A DNA stretch of 64,000 nt from a virus, in the IMG/VR virus record IMGVR_UViG_3300017917_003339, positions 1 through 64,000 of that record, one strand, 5' to 3'. The first letter of the stretch is position 1. Every line of letters starts with the position of its first letter. The position numbers and the translations under genes were made by a program. The notes under the pieces are model-generated. The model saw only the letters and a program-made list of their open reading frames with translations, did not search any database and was not told where the DNA came from. This document shows positions 45,197 through 63,989 of this stretch, piece after piece.

Positions 45197-45210
45197 TTAT
45201 TTTGTTGCAT

Positions 45211-45246
45211 AAAAAAACCCAGTTTAGATTTTACTCTGAACTGGGT
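45211..45246 (-). terminator. Attenuator terminator A
   Basis: ACCCAGTTCAGA-GTAAAA-TCTAAACTGGGT-TTTTTT just 5' of first tRNA. Confidence 0.88.
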
Positions 45247-45271
45247 CTATAATTTGTACTTGCGTACTTTA

Positions 45272-45373
45272 TTATATTGTTGTCAAGTCTGAAAACATGA
45301 CATACCCAGTCGACCTGAACGGTTTCCCGCCCTTAGGTTGATATTGCGTTTGATATGTTTTAGTTGTTTTCAT
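45272..45373 (-). CDS. Leader peptide A (33 aa) MKTTKTYQTQYQPKGGKPFRSTGYVMFSDLTTI
   Basis: Manual translation; codons 2-18 encode only K,T,Y,Q,P,G; contains antiterminator GACTGGGT. Confidence 0.85.
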   Translation of the reverse strand: MKTTKTYQTQYQPKGGKPFRSTGYVMFSDLTTI

Positions 45374-45390
45374 AACTTTGTTTTTTGTTT

Positions 45391-45481
45391 TGTTTATAAA
45401 TATGTTGTTTTTTAAAAAAATTCTGTTTTTGTTTATTAATTTTTACAATGCAAAGATACTAACTATTATAATACAAGTCAA
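45391..45481 (-). promoter_or_regulatory. Dual promoter of leader A: host-type TTGAC..TATCTTTG and phage ACATATTTATAAAC motif
   Basis: TATCTTTG at 45451-45458, TATTTATA at 45395-45402; homologous to 61925-62015. Confidence 0.7.
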
Positions 45482-58285: not shown

Positions 58286-58317
58286 GCTAATTTTTTAATA
58301 TAAATATCACAAAAAAA

Positions 58318-58842
58318 CTAAACAGACATCCTTTTAACCATCTTTCTGTATATTCTATCTTCAAAATCTTTCATCAAAGAATCTGGGATTCTAATTCCTT
58401 TAGATTCGAATTCACCTATAATCTCACGTTTAAGAAATGTACCCTCAACAATTCCATCACCCCATTGGTCACACCAAAGTCCCCAGCTTTTCTTACCAAC
58501 AATCACAGCCTTGACTATGTTTGGGTGTCTGGTTACTATGGGTTTTCCACCAGAGTATTGTCCGTTATCGAATTTTCTAAATGTGTTTTTACCTTCGGAT
58601 TCATTGACATCAAATTCAACATTGACGATAGAACCGCAAAAGGTAAGAATACCTTTCCTATAAGAAGATAGAAAGAAATTGAAGATTTCATTGAAGTTGT
58701 CGGAATACTTTGATAACTTTCTATCAAGTCTGTTACCAGTTTCCTTTTTGCGTAATTCAATACGCTCTTGTTTTGTTAGGCTCCCAAGCGGTCGCCTCCT
58801 GATTGTGTTGTTTTCATATTCTTGTGTTTTTTGTTTAACCAA
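58318..58842 (-). CDS. Hypothetical protein
   Basis: ORF on coding strand. Confidence 0.5.
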   Translation of the reverse strand: MVKQKTQEYENNTIRRRPLGSLTKQERIELRKKETGNRLDRKLSKYSDNFNEIFNFFLSSYRKGILTFCGSIVNVEFDVNESEGKNTFRKFDNGQYSGGKPIVTRHPNIVKAVIVGKKSWGLWCDQWGDGIVEGTFLKREIIGEFESKGIRIPDSLMKDFEDRIYRKMVKRMSV

Positions 58843-59579
58843 TTTAATTTATTCAAGTCAATACTTGAATTAGATTTTACAATATGACCATCTGGAAAAT
58901 GTTTTATCATATCAGACATACTCAATACTGGAAAATCTTTGTCAAAGTTTGCGTTTGGATGTGACCAACCAAATTTAAACAACCAATTCAACAACGCATC
59001 AACATCATAGTCATTATAATCATCCGTAGTACAGTTACCAGTTCTTTTAGATAACTTACTACCCTTATAAAACAATAAACCAGCATGTTGAACATTTGGA
59101 AATTGTTTTTGACCATATACGTTGCAAATCATATCCCACAACTTTTGTTGTTTTGGTAAATTTGTAATGTGGTCCACACCTCTGATTATGTCTGTAATGT
59201 CATAATCATAGTCATCTAATATCGAAGCAAAATTATAGGTTGGATAACCGTTATCTCTAAGGATAACCATATCGTAATCTCCCATGTTTACGTTTAACGT
59301 ACCATCGTCTTTTTTAAACCCTATAGCTGTTGCCACTTGTTTGTATCGGTCAAGTCTGCTACTTTGCTTAAATGTTACATCATAATTTAACCCAAAGTAA
59401 TTCATTTGTTGATATATGAAATCTACATCTGAATCATTGTTCCTAGACAAATCTGTGTCATCGATTCTAAGGATAAAATTACCATCATTTGATTTACTCA
59501 ATAAATAATTGAATAAAGCAGTACGTAATGTCCCTAAATGAAATTTGCCCGTTGGTGAAGGGGCAATTCTTGTTTTCAT
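58776..59579 (-). CDS. Truncated glutamyl-tRNA synthetase-like protein (GluQ/YadB-like catalytic domain)
   Basis: TRIAPSPTG.FHLGTLRTA, LRIDDTD, PTYNFA, IRGVDH, KLSKR; no anticodon-binding domain. Confidence 0.85.
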   Translation of the reverse strand: MKTRIAPSPTGKFHLGTLRTALFNYLLSKSNDGNFILRIDDTDLSRNNDSDVDFIYQQMNYFGLNYDVTFKQSSRLDRYKQVATAIGFKKDDGTLNVNMGDYDMVILRDNGYPTYNFASILDDYDYDITDIIRGVDHITNLPKQQKLWDMICNVYGQKQFPNVQHAGLLFYKGSKLSKRTGNCTTDDYNDYDVDALLNWLFKFGWSHPNANFDKDFPVLSMSDMIKHFPDGHIVKSNSSIDLNKLNWLNKKHKNMKTTQSGGDRLGA

Positions 59580-59600
59580 AATACTATTTTTTATATTTTG

Positions 59601-59673
59601 TGGAGCTGACGGGAGTTGAACCCGCATCCTCTACCTTGCAAAGGTAGCGCTCAGCCAGTTGAGCTACAGCCCC
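59601..59673 (-). tRNA. tRNA-Ala(TGC)
   Basis: G3.U70; CTACC-TTTGCAA-GGTAG. Confidence 0.9.
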
Positions 59674-59674
59674 A

Positions 59675-59731
59675 AAATTTCTAATTCTACGCTTACAATA
59701 TGTAGTTCTATGAATTAGTAACAGTCTCATC
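59675..59731 (-). repeat. Conserved inter-tRNA element, copy 3
   Basis: GATGAGACTGTTA-CTAATTC-ATAG..GCGTA-GAATTAG-AAATTT. Confidence 0.8.
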
Positions 59732-59735
59732 TGTG

Positions 59736-59856
59736 CGGACGCAGTGGGACTCGAACCCACAGCTTTTTCGTGACAGGAAAATTAACTAATGCTGCTGGAG
59801 ATAACCTTGTCAGGTTATGACTTGTTTTTAACATGTTACCCTTACACCATACGTCC
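59736..59856 (-). ncRNA. tRNA-Asp(GTC) with ~50-nt helix+CAGCAG insertion before the anticodon stem
   Basis: GGACGTA/TGCGTCC-G73; TTTTC-CTGTCAC-GAAAA; insert ATAACCT-GACA-AGGTTAT-CTCCAGCAG. Confidence 0.8.
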
Positions 59857-59994
59857 AAAAATACCTTTACATTTCAAAGGTTAAGCAGGTTTAGTTGCGG
59901 ACTTTCCTTCCAGTCAGTGCTTCTTTTTCCAGAGATTGCCTCTATACGCACGTTATCTGACAATTTTAACACGAAGCGACCGTGTTAGCAATCG

Positions 59995-60068
59995 TGGAGA
60001 CTGCGGGAGTCGAACCCGCGACCTTCTGCGTGCAAGGCAGACGCTCTAGCCAGCTGAGCTAAGTCCCC
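59995..60068 (-). tRNA. tRNA-Ala(TGC)
   Basis: TCTGC-CTTGCAC-GCAGA; G3.U70. Confidence 0.92.
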
Positions 60069-60078
60069 AAATATTTTA

Positions 60079-60149
60079 GAAGCGCAATTGGTTTCGAACC
60101 AATGTTTCCAGCTACGCGCCAGCGTCCTAAGCCCCTAGACGATACACTT
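60079..60149 (-). ncRNA. tRNA-like RNA (Glu-type D arm) with 5-nt loop
   Basis: GTCTAG..AGGAC; CTGGC-GCGTA-GCTGG; ATTGG-TTCGAAA-CCAAT. Confidence 0.55.
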
Positions 60150-60251
60150 TAACTACTCTCAATACAACTGCCATCATATATTGAGTAGAATGGCCTTGTT
60201 ACTTCACCTTTCAGTTGGCAGACCTACTTGGTTTTTCACTCACCTTTTTTG

Positions 60252-60325
60252 CCGAGATACTGGGATTCGAACCCAGTTCGCACGCCGTGACAGGGCGGCA
60301 TCCTTCGCCAGTGGACCTTACCTCG
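60252..60325 (-). tRNA. tRNA-Asp(GTC)
   Basis: CGCC-CTGTCAC-GGCG; G73. Confidence 0.82.
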
Positions 60326-60331
60326 AATCTA

Positions 60332-60408
60332 TGGCGGTCTGTACGGGACTCGAACCCGTGACCTTCGCCGTGACAGGGCGACATTGTAACCAACTCTACT
60401 AACAGACC
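60332..60408 (-). tRNA. tRNA-Asp(GTC)
   Basis: TCGCC-CTGTCAC-GGCGA; GCCA end. Confidence 0.92.
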
Positions 60409-60414
60409 AAATAT

Positions 60415-60490
60415 TGGTAGTCTGTACGGGATTCGAACCCGTGTTTTACCCGTGAAAGGGGCACGTCCTGACCAACTAGACGAACAGACC
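60415..60490 (-). tRNA. tRNA-Glu(TTC)
   Basis: TGCCC-CTTTCAC-GGGTA; CCA encoded. Confidence 0.9.
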
Positions 60491-60524
60491 ATTTAGATTT
60501 TTGATTACTGGAATCTTAACCAGA

Positions 60525-61163
60525 TTATTTTCTCCCTTTTAACCAACCTTCGTTTAAATAAGTTTCAAGGTCTTCTTTTTTAATTTTTTTGTTAGTACCA
60601 TCCTTGGTTATCCAACATGTACCATATTGACTGTTTGTTTCACCAGTCCCAGTACCTTTTCTTTTTTCTGATATTAATTGTTTAGTTTCTTCCGAATGAC
60701 ATTTACCTTCAAAAGTATTATAATTAATTTTACCTAATTTATGTGCTTTTTTTAATGTTTCAGATGATATTTCTGTATGTTTTTTAAAAAACTCTTCATC
60801 AATTTTTAATTTGTCAGAAAACGCTTTTCCACCAGCCTTAATACATTTCTCCATATGTTCTTTATTAGCAAAACCACCTTGACCACCTTCTTTTAAATTC
60901 ATACATAAACCATCAGATATCAACTCTTTTGTTATAATTTCAATCTCTCTAAGAACTAATTTTTCTCTTGTTGGTAAAAATTCTAATATTTCTTTTGTAT
61001 GGTTTTCAACACCATATTTCCTAATACTATATCTTAATATCTTACCACTTCCCATGTAACCGTCATCTAATTTCGTAGTTGAATGCATTCCAATATACCA
61101 TCTTCCTGTTACATTACATGTTGTTTTATATATGTAATGTATATTTGCTTTTTTTCTTGCCAT
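60525..61163 (-). CDS. GIY-YIG (Seg-like) homing endonuclease with NUMOD3-like region
   Basis: YIYKTT..TGRWYIG.H..YMGSG...NLKEGG; HSEETKQLISEK. Confidence 0.88.
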   Translation of the reverse strand: MARKKANIHYIYKTTCNVTGRWYIGMHSTTKLDDGYMGSGKILRYSIRKYGVENHTKEILEFLPTREKLVLREIEIITKELISDGLCMNLKEGGQGGFANKEHMEKCIKAGGKAFSDKLKIDEEFFKKHTEISSETLKKAHKLGKINYNTFEGKCHSEETKQLISEKRKGTGTGETNSQYGTCWITKDGTNKKIKKEDLETYLNEGWLKGRK

Positions 61164-61220
61164 TTCAGTTTATCTTTAATAATAAATATCAAGATAAACT
61201 GAAAAGTACAAAAAAGTTTA

Positions 61221-61299
61221 TGGTAGCCTCGACGGGGCTCGAACCCGCATTGCACACCTTGAAAGGATGGCTTCCTAGTCCGATTTAGAAGACAAGGCC
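61221..61299 (-). tRNA. tRNA-Glu(TTC)
   Basis: loop CTTTCAA; imperfect anticodon stem; CCA encoded. Confidence 0.78.
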
Positions 61300-61356
61300 A
61301 TGTTTATCGTTTCGGTTACCCCCACGCAGTGCACTTACGCAGGGACCTACTCCTTG

Positions 61357-61520
61357 TAGGAATGAGTGGATTCGAACCACTGACCTTCTCCCTTATGATG
61401 GGAGTCGTTCTGAATGTGTTTTTTCAACCAACTTAATGGTAATTCATTAAGCACACACCCCGATTGTTGTTATTTACCATCTCCTTAAGGAGCCAATCAG
61501 ACCGCTGAACGTACATTCCT
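61357..61520 (-). ncRNA. tRNA(CAT), Ile2/Met, with ~90-nt structured insertion in the D loop
   Basis: AGGAATG/CATTCCT; GTTC..GAAC D stem split by insert; CTCCC-ATCATAA-GGGAG. Confidence 0.75.
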
Positions 61521-61522
61521 AG

Positions 61523-61595
61523 TGGTACCTCCCAGATTCGAACTGGGGACACCTGCATCTTCAGTGCAGTGCTCTACCAACTGAGCTAAGGTACC
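61523..61595 (-). tRNA. tRNA-Phe(GAA)
   Basis: CTGCA-CTGAAGA-TGCAG. Confidence 0.92.
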
Positions 61596-61605
61596 TTTTA
61601 ATTTC

Positions 61606-61640
61606 GTTGCAAAGATACAACTTATTTTTTAATCTCCAAA
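61606..61640 (-). promoter_or_regulatory. Internal host-type promoter (TTTG..TATCTTTG)
   Basis: TTTGGAGATTAAAAAATAAGTTGTATCTTTGCAAC. Confidence 0.55.
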
Positions 61641-61674
61641 TTTTCAATGAACTTTTTTTATTTTTTTTTTCTTG

Positions 61675-61745
61675 TGGAATCAACGGGAGTCGACCCCGTG
61701 TCTCTGGCTCTTCAGGCCAGCGCTAAACCCCTCAGCTATGACTCC
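61675..61745 (-). tRNA. tRNA-Phe(GAA), variant T loop
   Basis: CTGGC-CTGAAGA-GCCAG; T loop GTCGACT. Confidence 0.8.
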
Positions 61746-61758
61746 AATTTTTGTACAT

Positions 61759-61789
61759 AAAAAAAGCCTGACTTATTAGGGTCAGGCTT
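61759..61789 (-). terminator. Attenuator terminator B
   Basis: AAGCCTGAC-CCTAATAA-GTCAGGCTT-TTTTT just 5' of first tRNA-Phe. Confidence 0.88.
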
Positions 61790-61817
61790 GTTACTATGGT
61801 TGAGTTATTTCTAACTG

Positions 61818-61907
61818 TTAACTATTGGCAACACACGACCCTCCAGAAGAGCAATCCTCCTCGGCAGCAAAAAATGCAAAATCAAATATGTTAGCAAAAG
61901 TTCTCAT
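61818..61907 (-). CDS. Leader peptide B (29 aa) MRTFANIFDFAFFAAEEDCSSGGSCVANS
   Basis: Manual translation; codons 4-18 almost only F,A,D,E,I; contains antiterminator AGGGTCG. Confidence 0.85.
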   Translation of the reverse strand: MRTFANIFDFAFFAAEEDCSSGGSCVANS

Positions 61908-61924
61908 AGTAATATTTTTATGTT

Positions 61925-62015
61925 TGTTTATAAATATGTTCTTTTTTTAAAAAGTTTATTTTTTGTTTGTTTTTAAATTCTTTGCAAATATACGAACTAT
62001 TTTAATACTAGTCAA
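61925..62015 (-). promoter_or_regulatory. Dual promoter of leader B
   Basis: TTGAC at 62011-62015, TATATTTG at 61985-61992, ACATATTTATAAAC near 61926-61939. Confidence 0.7.
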
Positions 62016-62042
62016 GTTTTTTTGCAACTTTTTTAAATTATT

Positions 62043-62630
62043 TTATAATTCGTTGTTTCTCAATTGATTAAGATAAGCTTCCATTTCATCTTTTTCATCG
62101 TATTTGAATGTTTTTAACACTCTCACGCTTTTGGTTGAAATTGATTTACCACCAGCTGCTCCTTTCCTAACATATATTCTATCAGAATCTAACTGATGTG
62201 CTGGTACAGCTTGATAGTAATATTTAGGGTCTAAATATGCCATTGGTATTATGATTTCAATAACTGCATAATCTGGACCTTCAAATTCTTCTGTCATGTT
62301 GAATAAATCATCGTGGTGTTTATGTTTGAATTTAACACCTAAGTCAGTCATCATAGAAGGAACGTATTTTGCATCTGGATGTTGTTGTTTAATATACTGC
62401 ATCATCTTAGAACCAATTCCTAACCTTCTATATTTTGGTAAGACTATAATATTACCAACAGTCAATTCACCATCGTATATTGTGTATTGTACCATTCCAA
62501 GAATGTCATCATTCAAATACACACCCAACTCATAATCATCTTGACCATGGTGATAACCCATGTGTTCTGTTCTATAATCTAACTCGCCAGTGAGCCCTTC
62601 TCTTAACAATTTTTTTATTAGTGCTTTCAT
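62043..62630 (-). CDS. GNAT-domain late protein
   Basis: MKALIKKLLREG; PKYRRLGIGSKMM. Confidence 0.7.
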   Translation of the reverse strand: MKALIKKLLREGLTGELDYRTEHMGYHHGQDDYELGVYLNDDILGMVQYTIYDGELTVGNIIVLPKYRRLGIGSKMMQYIKQQHPDAKYVPSMMTDLGVKFKHKHHDDLFNMTEEFEGPDYAVIEIIIPMAYLDPKYYYQAVPAHQLDSDRIYVRKGAAGGKSISTKSVRVLKTFKYDEKDEMEAYLNQLRNNEL

Positions 62631-62659
62631 ACTAATAAATATGTCAAAGAATTGATTTG

Positions 62660-62742
62660 TACCGCTGACTGGACTCGAACCAGCACACCCTTTCGGGCAC
62701 CAGATTCTTAGTCTGGCGTGTCTACCATTCCACCACAGCGGC
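62660..62742 (-). tRNA. tRNA-Leu(AAG)
   Basis: CCAGA-CTAAGAA-TCTGG; long variable arm. Confidence 0.88.
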
Positions 62743-62747
62743 AGGTA

Positions 62748-62836
62748 CAAGATAGTTAATTTTGTGGATTTGAACCACTTCGTTCGCATTTTAAGTGTGA
62801 ATTTTTAACCAATTTTGTTTGCTGAAACTATCTTTT
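62748..62836 (-). ncRNA. Helix+CAGCAA RNA with Leu(TAA) anticodon hairpin and T arm but no acceptor stem
   Basis: AAGATAGTT-TCAGCAA..TTCACA-CTTAAAA-TGCGAA..GTGG-TTCAAAT-CCAC..AACTATCTT-G. Confidence 0.72.
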
Positions 62837-62837
62837 G

Positions 62838-62912
62838 TAGGTCTGGAGGGATTCGAACCCCCGACTTTTTCCTTGTAAGAGAAACACTCTGAACCAACTG
62901 AGTTACAGACCC
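62838..62912 (-). tRNA. tRNA-Val(TAC)
   Basis: TTTCT-CTTACAA-GGAAA. Confidence 0.9.
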
Positions 62913-62921
62913 ATTATATTG

Positions 62922-63004
62922 TACCGCTGGCGAGACTCGAACTCGCACGCTTATTTCAGCACTGGTTTCTAAGACCAGCGGGTCTACCATTCCCCCACAG
63001 CGGC
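62922..63004 (-). tRNA. tRNA-Leu(TAG)
   Basis: CTGGT-CTTAGAA-ACCAG. Confidence 0.92.
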
Positions 63005-63014
63005 ATATATGATG

Positions 63015-63155
63015 TTAAGCTTCTTCTAGCTCAACATCTTCAATTTCTTTATCTTGTTCTAATTTTTTAGCACATGTAATGTGCATAAATTTTTTGTCTA
63101 CTACTAAAGCAGCACCGTGGATAACACCACCACATTCACAACAATTAAACTTCAT
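63015..63155 (-). CDS. Small Zn-binding protein (46 aa)
   Basis: MKFNCCECGG...MHITC. Confidence 0.55.
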   Translation of the reverse strand: MKFNCCECGGVIHGAALVVDKKFMHITCAKKLEQDKEIEDVELEEA

Positions 63156-63188
63156 ACTTCCATAATTTTAATTAACACGTTATTTTTG

Positions 63189-63272
63189 TAGCCAGAGTGG
63201 GAATCGAACCCACACGTCCTTGCGGACACCAGATTTTGAGTCTGGCGCGTCTACCAATTCCGCCATCTGGCC
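63189..63272 (-). tRNA. tRNA-Leu(CAA)
   Basis: CCAGA-CTCAAAA-TCTGG. Confidence 0.92.
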
Positions 63273-63277
63273 AGTTG

Positions 63278-63363
63278 TAGCCGAGGAGGGACTCGAACCC
63301 TCACGCCCATTACTGAGCACGGGATTTTAAGTCCCGCGTGTCTACCAATTCCACCACTCGGCC
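63278..63363 (-). tRNA. tRNA-Leu(TAA)
   Basis: CGGGA-CTTAAAA-TCCCG. Confidence 0.92.
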
Positions 63364-63464
63364 ATTTATGTGTTGTGAGAACTGTACCGTAGGCTATTCT
63401 CCGCATACCACATGGGTATTGTTCTATCGCCATAGCAGCCTCCATAAAGGACAACACATATTTT

Positions 63465-63542
63465 TGGTACACCCAACTGGATTCGAACCAGTGGCCTCTT
63501 GCGTGTAAAACAAGCGCTCTCAACCAACTGAGCTATGGGTGC
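63465..63542 (-). tRNA. tRNA-Val(TAC)
   Basis: CTTGT-TTTACAC-GCAAG; CCA encoded. Confidence 0.9.
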
Positions 63543-63554
63543 ATATGGTAGGGT

Positions 63555-63872
63555 TTAACCTACCTTGATAAAATCTTCATTATCGATGGCTCTTTCAATC
63601 CATCTGATTAATTCTGAACCCTTGATTTCTGCATCGAATGTGGTTGTACCCAAATCCTCAGCCAATACTAGTGTTGCAATTTTTTCTCTTTCAAAAGAAT
63701 CCATTACAAATGATTTTTGTACAGTTTTGATTGGAAACTGATAGGTTCCATCCAACACATCAACTTTATAATATAGGTTCCCACCTACATAGTGACTAAA
63801 TTTAGCCAGATTCTTTGACTTATACAAGTCTTTTTTAATTTCATTCTTTTCCATTGTTTCACTCTTTATCAT
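63555..63872 (-). CDS. Hypothetical phage protein
   Basis: ORF on coding strand within tRNA array. Confidence 0.6.
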   Translation of the reverse strand: MIKSETMEKNEIKKDLYKSKNLAKFSHYVGGNLYYKVDVLDGTYQFPIKTVQKSFVMDSFEREKIATLVLAEDLGTTTFDAEIKGSELIRWIERAIDNEDFIKVG

Positions 63873-63874
63873 TG

Positions 63875-63945
63875 AGGCGCCGACTGGATTCGAACCAGTG
63901 TACGGGGTTTTGCAGACCCCTGCCTAGCCACTCGGCCACGGCGCC
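63875..63945 (-). tRNA. tRNA-Cys(GCA)
   Basis: GGGGT-CTGCAAA-ACCCC; U73. Confidence 0.92.
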
Positions 63946-63958
63946 ATTGTTATAAAAT

Positions 63959-63989
63959 AAAAAACCCATCTGGTTAGGATGGGCTTTTT
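63959..63989 (-). terminator. Terminator immediately 5' of Cys/Val/Leu tRNA array (candidate attenuator C)
   Basis: GCCCATC-CTAACCA-GATGGGT-TTTTT about 13 nt before tRNA-Cys. Confidence 0.75.

Follow-up and report, generated by a model that had tools for sequence, protein, structure and literature searches.

The DNA analysed here (the window) comprises bases 1–64,000 of the IMG/VR phage fragment IMGVR_UViG_3300017917_003339 (G000), which totals 92.5 kb and has an estimated completeness of ∼26%. Its subject is an array of transfer RNA (tRNA) genes preceded by a small open reading frame (ORF) and an intrinsic terminator; this arrangement, which we call unit B, is probably a ribosome-mediated attenuator. 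The minus strand carries every gene treated in the analysis. The promoters of the phage, found by pattern matching, have the Bacteroidota form (TTG, then TAnnTTTG), and the host is taken to be of the Bacteroidota type. The nearest named record is the uncultured phage LR745206.1 (635 kb), where the counterpart of the GluRS-like protein encoded in unit B is 64% identical. A near-identity DNA search of phage records with the sequence 58300–62100 gave no match.

Unit B begins with a leader promoter at 61985–62015, in which TTGACT and TATATT are separated by 17 nt and which overlaps a −7 box of the Bacteroidota type (TAnnTTTG). The leader ORF (leader ORF B, 61818–61907) starts ∼70 nt downstream of this promoter and has 29 codons, from ATG to TAA. 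Between the two lies an A-rich, mostly unpaired 5′ untranslated region (UTR; 61908–61978) containing the motif CATATTTATAAACAA, which is present in other leader units too. Copies of the motif at 61945–61931, at 45405–45391 and in the leaders of a relative, G001, are found in 5′ UTRs at varying distances from the promoter; it may represent a second promoter type or a translation signal. An initial annotation, made from the sequence alone, had pointed out the ORF at 61907–61818 and the content of its codons 4–18, and both read exactly as it claimed. These putative sensor codons (61854–61898) comprise 13 codons for Phe, Ala, Asp or Glu, one Ile codon (ATA) and one Asn codon. Within them is a core, codons 8–18 (61886–61854), made up solely of Phe, Asp, Ala and Glu codons, so that 11 out of 11 match the array downstream.

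The leader ORF is followed by an intrinsic terminator (61757–61789, with the hairpin at 61789–61764), which has a 9-bp stem, an 8-nt loop and a run of seven T residues; an independent scan agreed on its location. The T run lies 14 nt from the start of the first tRNA-Phe gene. Two segments of the leader can pair with one another, and the second can instead pair with the terminator. Region 1 (61878–61893), the putative protector arm, contains TAACATAT and GATTTT. Region 2 (61829–61842) contains the G-rich sequence AGGGTCG and GTGTGTTG, and its partner may be either region 1 or the 5′ arm of the terminator. In the latter case the target is TGACCCT at 61778–61784; the complementarity of this sequence to AGGGTCG, noted in the initial annotation, was confirmed and overlaps both the 5′ arm and the loop of the terminator hairpin.

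Downstream of the terminator, the array as called by ARAGORN and Rfam runs from 61745 to 59600. It opens with two tRNA-Phe(GAA) genes, at 61674–61745 and 61522–61595, and a tRNA gene with a CAT anticodon at ∼61354–61520, which has an insert of ∼90 nt in its D-loop and is called by ARAGORN only after these ∼90 nt are removed. A divergent tRNA gene at 61221–61299 is probably Glu(UUC): ARAGORN called it SeC(tca), and a close homologue in a relative was called Glu(ttc). Further downstream are tRNA-Glu(UUC) at 60415–60490, two tRNA-Asp(GUC) genes at 60332–60408 and 60251–60325, and two tRNA-Ala(UGC) genes at 59994–60068 and 59600–59673. Between the two Ala genes is a third tRNA-Asp(GUC), at 59736–59856, which contains an insert; it scored 39.9 bits with the Rfam tRNA model and its anticodon loop was read by eye. 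The initial list of array genes (Phe ×2, CAT, Glu ×2, Asp ×3, Ala ×2) therefore stands, with the second Glu depending on homology.

To score the agreement between a leader and an array, we counted those of codons 2–18 that code for amino acids of the array's tRNAs and calculated a binomial probability. For comparison, the same score was obtained for 418 short ORFs of the genome, the leaders included. Leader B matched its own array at 14 of 17 codons (P = 2 × 10−5), a score equalled by none of the other 417 short ORFs. The initial annotation had counted 14 of the 15 codons at positions 4–18 as matched, on condition that the CAT tRNA be Ile2, the tRNA that reads the single Ile codon (ATA). The 13 Phe, Ala, Asp and Glu codons stand, but the ATA codon cannot be counted because the AAC-ATA sequence of codons 6–7 recurs in the leaders of other arrays (leaders C and E, and the merged leader of G001), where it forms one arm of a conserved helix, as it does in leader B. 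Nor was the identity of the CAT tRNA as Ile2 confirmed: alignment with the phage's own tRNAs leans weakly towards Ile(GAT) (42/75 identities, compared with 35/75 for Met), with the ATA codon not used as evidence. The B leaders of relatives read Leu-Thr at codons 4–5, and the conserved part of the sensor is thus codons 8–18. Alignment of the leaders across related phages, proposed initially as a check, showed that the reading frame is kept in relatives and that the indels in the E-family ORF are multiples of three. The sensors were not enriched in rare codons, with a mean within-family codon fraction of 0.37–0.48 against an expected 0.41–0.55.

The promoter and leader start of unit B recur upstream of every large array in the genome. 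There are four such units, all with the same order of elements: a 34-nt promoter pattern, an A-rich UTR, an ORF of 27–33 codons, a hairpin with a U-tract, and a tRNA array. Together the four arrays serve all 20 amino acids. In unit A (45210–45481), codons 2–18 of the leader (ORF 45373–45272) are all Lys, Thr, Tyr, Gln, Pro or Gly codons, and the array (45196–43134) holds tRNAs of the same six isotypes, in the order Pro, Gln, Lys, Gly, Tyr and Thr. Its G-rich segment is ACTGGGT (45310–45304) and its terminator, including the T run, is at 45247–45218. The part of unit C that lies in the window (62659–63989) consists of the terminator (63989–63959) and an array of Cys, Val ×2 and Leu ×4; its leader (G000 64096–64013), rich in Leu, Val and Cys codons, takes the unit across the window edge. 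Unit E has a leader (G000 85249–85148) rich in Ile, Asn, His, Met, Ser, Arg and Trp codons and an array with the same seven isotypes, while leader B is rich in Phe, Ala, Asp and Glu codons ahead of its Phe, CAT, Glu, Asp and Ala genes.

The leaders matched their own arrays at 17/17 codons for A (P = 2 × 10−9), 9/17 for C (P = 4.5 × 10−4) and 16/17 for E (P = 4 × 10−8), and each leader scored only 0–4/17 against the arrays of the other units. As with B, the A and E leaders had the top score among the 418 short ORFs. The joint probability of the four leader–array matches is ∼1 × 10−24. The agreement extends to isoacceptors: all 27 distinct anticodons (with CAT counted in array E alone) have a cognate codon in the sensor of their own unit, rare codons included; the two Arg families, the two Ser families and four Leu isoacceptors, for instance, are all represented. 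Coverage of this kind has P ∼0.012 when the peptides and the codon usage of the phage are taken as given. The U-tract is 14–15 nt from the first tRNA in arrays A and C, and no internal promoter motif was found in either; the tRNAs of A and C would therefore be transcribed only through the terminator.

Several other features of the sister units were noted. The A family has a small hairpin (GTAC-GCAA-GTAC, 45268–45255) that separates the terminator from the stop codon of the leader. In one relative (L014) a double compensatory change makes it GTAG-GTAA-CTAC; the hairpin may have a pausing or spacing role. In unit E, a 59-codon ORF (G000:C1 85079–84900, outside the window), conserved in all relatives, follows the terminator and precedes the first tRNA; the E attenuator would thus also control a small protein. 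A fifth promoter of the same kind, in the region 4141–3820, precedes an insert-bearing tRNA-Ser(AGA) gene, and the gap of ∼190 nt between them contains no matched leader ORF and no terminator.

When IMG/VR was scanned with the promoter pattern, hits were obtained at 31 loci distributed over 17 contigs. At all but six of these loci, one of the same leader families stood ahead of the same kind of array. The six remaining hits (L012, L013, L016, L025, L034 and L037) have a protein gene downstream and no tRNAs, and were treated as unrelated false positives. Among the close relatives on the 17 contigs, sensor substitutions mostly stayed within the amino acid set of the array (30 within, 9 outside), whereas those in the peptide tail mostly did not (18 within, 41 outside; Fisher P = 1 × 10−5 for sensor versus tail).

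Further comparisons were provided by phages in which the tRNA genes are partitioned differently. The 248-kb relative G001 has three units rather than four. Its tRNA-Glu gene is in the Pro/Gln/Tyr/Lys/Gly/Thr array, and the leader of that array includes a Glu codon and scores 17/17. A single array of G001 combines the Cys/Val/Leu genes with the Phe/Asp/Ala genes, behind one merged leader that mixes codons for these six amino acids, has none for Glu, and scores 17/23. The third G001 leader is far from leader E in sequence but still scores 22/23. In LR745206.1, which has 61 tRNAs sorted in yet another way, leaders were found before three arrays. One has 23 of 24 codons for Asn, Arg, Leu, Val, Ile, Thr or Met and precedes exactly those isotypes; the second has a run of Pro, Gln and Asp codons ahead of a Pro/Asp/Gln array; and the third scores 14/24 for His, Phe, Lys, Trp, Arg and Ser. 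The scores of these leaders against one another's arrays were low, save for one pair (11/24, not significant). Since the partitions of both G001 and LR745206.1 have matching leaders, the composition of a leader tracks that of its array through independent rearrangements. Gating is not universal, because in an array of LR745206.1 at 364200–369300 (L051; Met, Glu, Tyr, Ile(TAT), Gly and Ala) the shared UTR motif runs directly into tRNA-Met, with no leader ORF.

The minimum free energy (MFE) fold of the B leader, calculated without constraints, pairs TAACATAT with GTGTGTTG and GATTTT with AGGGTC. The alternative pairing with the sensor region that had been claimed for this leader (through TGATTTT and AACATAT/GTGTGTT) was thereby recovered. 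Similar folds were obtained for all seven leaders examined: a long helix, joining the sensor start with its shared AACATAT to the G-rich segment and a GTATGT or GTGTGTT flank, together with the terminator. Every unit has a G-rich segment, at ORF nt 59–72 (66–72 in B, and 79–85 in the merged G001 leader), that copies the 3′ arm of the terminator and is therefore able to form a duplex with the 5′ arm. Changes in the three strands are coordinated. Unit A has ACTGGGT in the leader and ACCCAGT in the 5′ arm, its G001 counterpart has ATTGGGT and ACCCAAT, and the 3′ arm follows. In the E family, GTCGGGT/ACCCGAC is accompanied by the variants CAGGT/ACCTG and AATCAGG/CCTGATT. An alignment of the E family had 95.9% of cells paired in the antiterminator, with two compensatory pairs, compared with 17–51% in slid controls; the terminator helix had 98% of cells paired and three compensatory pairs. 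The duplexes formed by each leader with its own terminator averaged −13.1 kcal/mol, against −9.3 ± 2.6 kcal/mol for cross-unit duplexes. Relatives of B retain the antiterminator pairing after the loss of one G from the leader and one C from the loop, and in one of them a different leader segment pairs with an altered terminator. Compensatory changes and stronger own duplexes thus support an antiterminator in the system as a whole, with the evidence being weak for B taken alone.

The position of the sensor was then compared with the modelled geometry of a ribosome on the leader. With its A site at codons up to ∼17–18 the ribosome leaves the G-rich segment free, and from there to ∼codon 28 the segment is masked. 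The matched codons end at this boundary, and the boundary shifts with the G-rich segment: the merged G001 leader, whose segment is further 3′, has a longer stretch of matched codons, which reaches codon 24.

From the observed anatomy, the codon–array match, the leader–array co-variation and the compensatory changes in antiterminator and terminator, we consider it probable that unit B is an attenuator of the trp/ilv type that senses slow decoding of the codons its tRNA array serves. The initial annotation had arrived at this interpretation, and at the level of sequence it is supported by a matched short ORF, a terminator before the first tRNA, a mutually exclusive antiterminator and the placement of the sensor. 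It gains most from the agreement of the three sister units and the co-variation in G001 and LR745206.1. We infer leader translation, the direction and timing of the switch and read-through as follows. RNA synthesis would begin at the leader promoter and a ribosome would translate the 29-codon leader. When charged Phe, Asp, Ala or Glu tRNAs are scarce, decoding of codons 8–18 would be slow and the ribosome would stall upstream of the G-rich segment (ORF nt 66–72). The free segment could then pair with the 5′ arm of the terminator, blocking the hairpin and allowing the polymerase to enter the Phe, CAT, Glu, Asp and Ala tRNA genes and the GluRS-like gene. When decoding is quick, the ribosome would mask the G-rich segment while the terminator is synthesized, and transcription would stop 14 nt ahead of the first tRNA. 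With each of the four units reporting on the amino acids of its own array, the set would work as a homeostat, adjusting the tRNA supply for all 20 amino acids block by block. Slow decoding might be caused by codon demand, by host shut-off, or by host anticodon nucleases deployed as a defence.

Several observations weigh against this interpretation. The leaders have no Shine-Dalgarno sequence, as is expected for Bacteroidota-type hosts. The antiterminator of B is the weakest of the four, with 7 bp, of which 4 nt are shared with the stem, and is no better than in shuffled sequences (z = −0.6). The helix between regions 1 and 2 (the 1:2 helix) is nearly invariant across the leaders and thus gives no covariation signal. 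When the full leader was folded at equilibrium with a ribosome footprint, the terminator prevailed at all ribosome positions, and a purely thermodynamic switch was rejected on these grounds; the 1:2 helix also fails to hold the G-rich segment at equilibrium. With transcripts ending before the 3′ arm, the antiterminator formed whenever the G-rich segment was not covered by the ribosome, and in six of the seven leaders it formed with no ribosome present. Because equilibrium folding itself shows no switch, the decision would have to be kinetic, as in trp. Finally, a promoter-like motif inside array B could drive the whole of it apart from the first Phe gene.

The behaviour of the truncated transcripts also bears on the sign of the switch, which folding alone cannot fix. 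If the logic were reversed, efficient translation of the leader would open the 1:2 helix and free the G-rich segment, and read-through would rise when tRNAs are plentiful, in a feed-forward or licensing mode. The antiterminator forms in truncated transcripts whenever the G-rich segment is uncovered, and in B and the three G001 leaders this is the case even with the ribosome at the stop codon. We nevertheless regard reversed logic as improbable. The matched codons end where a stalled ribosome would start to mask the G-rich segment, a placement that moves with the segment and is required only when the signal consists of a ribosome stalled in the sensor; in addition, a positive loop would give no homeostasis. 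Even less credible is the suggestion that the short ORFs are micro-genes in their own right, or frames that arose by chance, lying before ordinary leaky terminators, with a coincidental match in amino acids. In its favour, 8 of the other short ORFs equal or exceed the 9/17 of leader C, but the joint match probability, the recurrence of the match with different partitions in G001 and LR745206.1, the confinement of sensor substitutions to the amino acid set of the array and the compensatory changes in the antiterminator together leave very little room for chance.

The promoter-like motif inside array B (TTG..TATCTTTG, 61610–61639) is a more serious consideration, and the initial annotation had cautioned that a host-type promoter here could bypass the terminator for most of the array. 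In the strongest form of this argument, the internal promoter accounts for most of the expression of array B and the attenuator governs little beyond the first tRNA-Phe, as a relic or a fine-tuner. The motif has the correct spacing and ends ∼14 nt before the second Phe gene, and a copy differing by one base is found inside array E (G000:C1 83598–83569). The near-identical motifs in B and E suggest a possible second, unattenuated route for the distal tRNAs. The first tRNA-Phe is the sole array B gene upstream of the motif and so must be transcribed through the terminator. The caution thus holds in that the motif is present and could act beyond the first Phe gene, but the motif is a mere pattern match and is not conserved: relatives have single or adjacent Phe genes, with no room for an internal promoter, yet leader, terminator and compensating antiterminator are all retained in them. 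Furthermore, both routes could operate at different times of infection. We therefore treat expression mainly from the internal promoter as a minority possibility, and the bypass itself as a modifier of the attenuation proposed above and not as an exclusive alternative to it.

The array ends, as initially proposed, in a GluRS-like gene (58776–59579), in the form of a truncated catalytic core. The gene begins 20 nt past the last tRNA, with no promoter motif between them. Its product scored 224 bits with the gltX_bact model (cut-off 290) and 120 bits with the GluQRS models (cut-offs 257–277), thereby missing every curated cut-off of the GluRS and GluQRS models. The match spans profile positions only to ∼320 of 470, with an internal gap, and the anticodon-binding domain is absent; HIGH-like and KMSKS-like motifs were read by eye in the translation. 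A second protein gene, similar to homing endonucleases (GIY-YIG/NUMOD3; 60525–61163), interrupts the array in its middle. G001 similarly has a 0.9-kb insert between one terminator and the first tRNA behind it.

Several of the tRNA genes of array B are unusual. The CAT gene and the insert-bearing Asp(GTC) gene both have long inserts upstream of the anticodon stem, and the CAT gene of G001 (L042) has an insert at the same place but of different sequence. The divergent tRNA at 61299–61221 can be read in two anticodon registers, UUC (Glu) or UCA (a reader of UGA), and ARAGORN calls the copies in relatives either way. Related contigs also hold tRNAs with a CTA anticodon, which bears on possible stop-codon recoding in the clade. 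Three stretches of the array (60250–60069, 59993–59857 and 61349–61300) have no tRNA call, although one holds a T-arm-like TTCGAAA hairpin; these stretches may be further odd or permuted tRNA genes. In searches with Rfam, tRNA was the only family to reach threshold in the window, with no leader or T-box family found, and a permissive scan of 59550–61800 was likewise empty of both.

The phage units share their main features with the enterobacterial leaders ilvGMEDA (sensing Ile/Leu/Val), thr (Thr/Ile), trpL, hisL and pheL. In both there is a short leader rich in the sensed codons and a terminator whose 5′ arm can instead take part in an antiterminator; a 1:2 helix that overlaps the leader, predicted for the phage units, is a further parallel, and in the multivalent enterobacterial leaders, as in the phage units, several amino acids are sensed per leader. 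By analogy, the nearest mechanism is that of the multivalent leaders of ilvGMEDA and thr. The phage units differ in controlling tRNA genes rather than biosynthetic enzymes. A single leader covers 4–8 amino acids, the number for B being four or five, and every isoacceptor has one codon or more; the whole code is divided among several leaders. They also belong to a phage of a Bacteroidota-type host and match no Rfam leader family.

Attenuation in response to poor tRNA charging is known for other components of translation. The pheM leader of Escherichia coli pheST, which encodes Phe-tRNA synthetase, responds to a single amino acid, and what it controls is a protein gene. The T-box leaders of aminoacyl-tRNA synthetase genes in Firmicutes bind uncharged tRNA directly via one specifier codon, without a ribosome. 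In these systems, as in the phage units, a translation component is turned on by attenuation when its tRNA is poorly charged, and unit B also ends in a GluRS-like gene; unlike the phage units, neither pheM nor the T-box is known to control tRNA genes. A literature search yielded no report of tRNA genes being controlled by a leader peptide, and a paper on huge phages makes no mention of leaders or of attenuation.

The closest published biology is that of the trn operon in Anabaena PCC 7120, likewise an accessory array of many tRNAs, which is long, stress-induced and off until translation is impaired (PMC8421152, PMC10272220). Its control is by a repressor protein, TrcR, acting on direct repeats at the promoter (PMC8421152, PMC10272220). 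The Anabaena array thus differs from the phage units in being cellular and in having promoter control with no amino acid specificity, and no leader or attenuation is mentioned in the paper.

The phage units are a real feature, and their probable mode of control, leader-peptide attenuation, is of a known type. Phage tRNA genes are usually viewed as constitutive supplements to codon usage or as spares against cleavage of host tRNAs, and the control of large phage tRNA sets is an open question in the field. If our interpretation is correct, these units would be the first class of attenuator whose output is the sensed molecule, tRNA, and would extend attenuation from amino acid metabolism to the decoding machinery. 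The tRNA supply of the phage would be driven by demand, through a leader that tests the speed of decoding for exactly the tRNAs encoded downstream, and this would explain why the tRNA genes of these phages are sorted into isotype blocks. Such leaders might further be put to use as compact, programmable sensors that report how fast chosen codons are decoded. More broadly, we think it reasonably likely that huge phages of Bacteroidota-type hosts have a modular and self-regulating tRNA supply, in which the complete set is held in blocks, each gated by a leader listing every isoacceptor, and slow decoding of any listed codon would switch on just that block.

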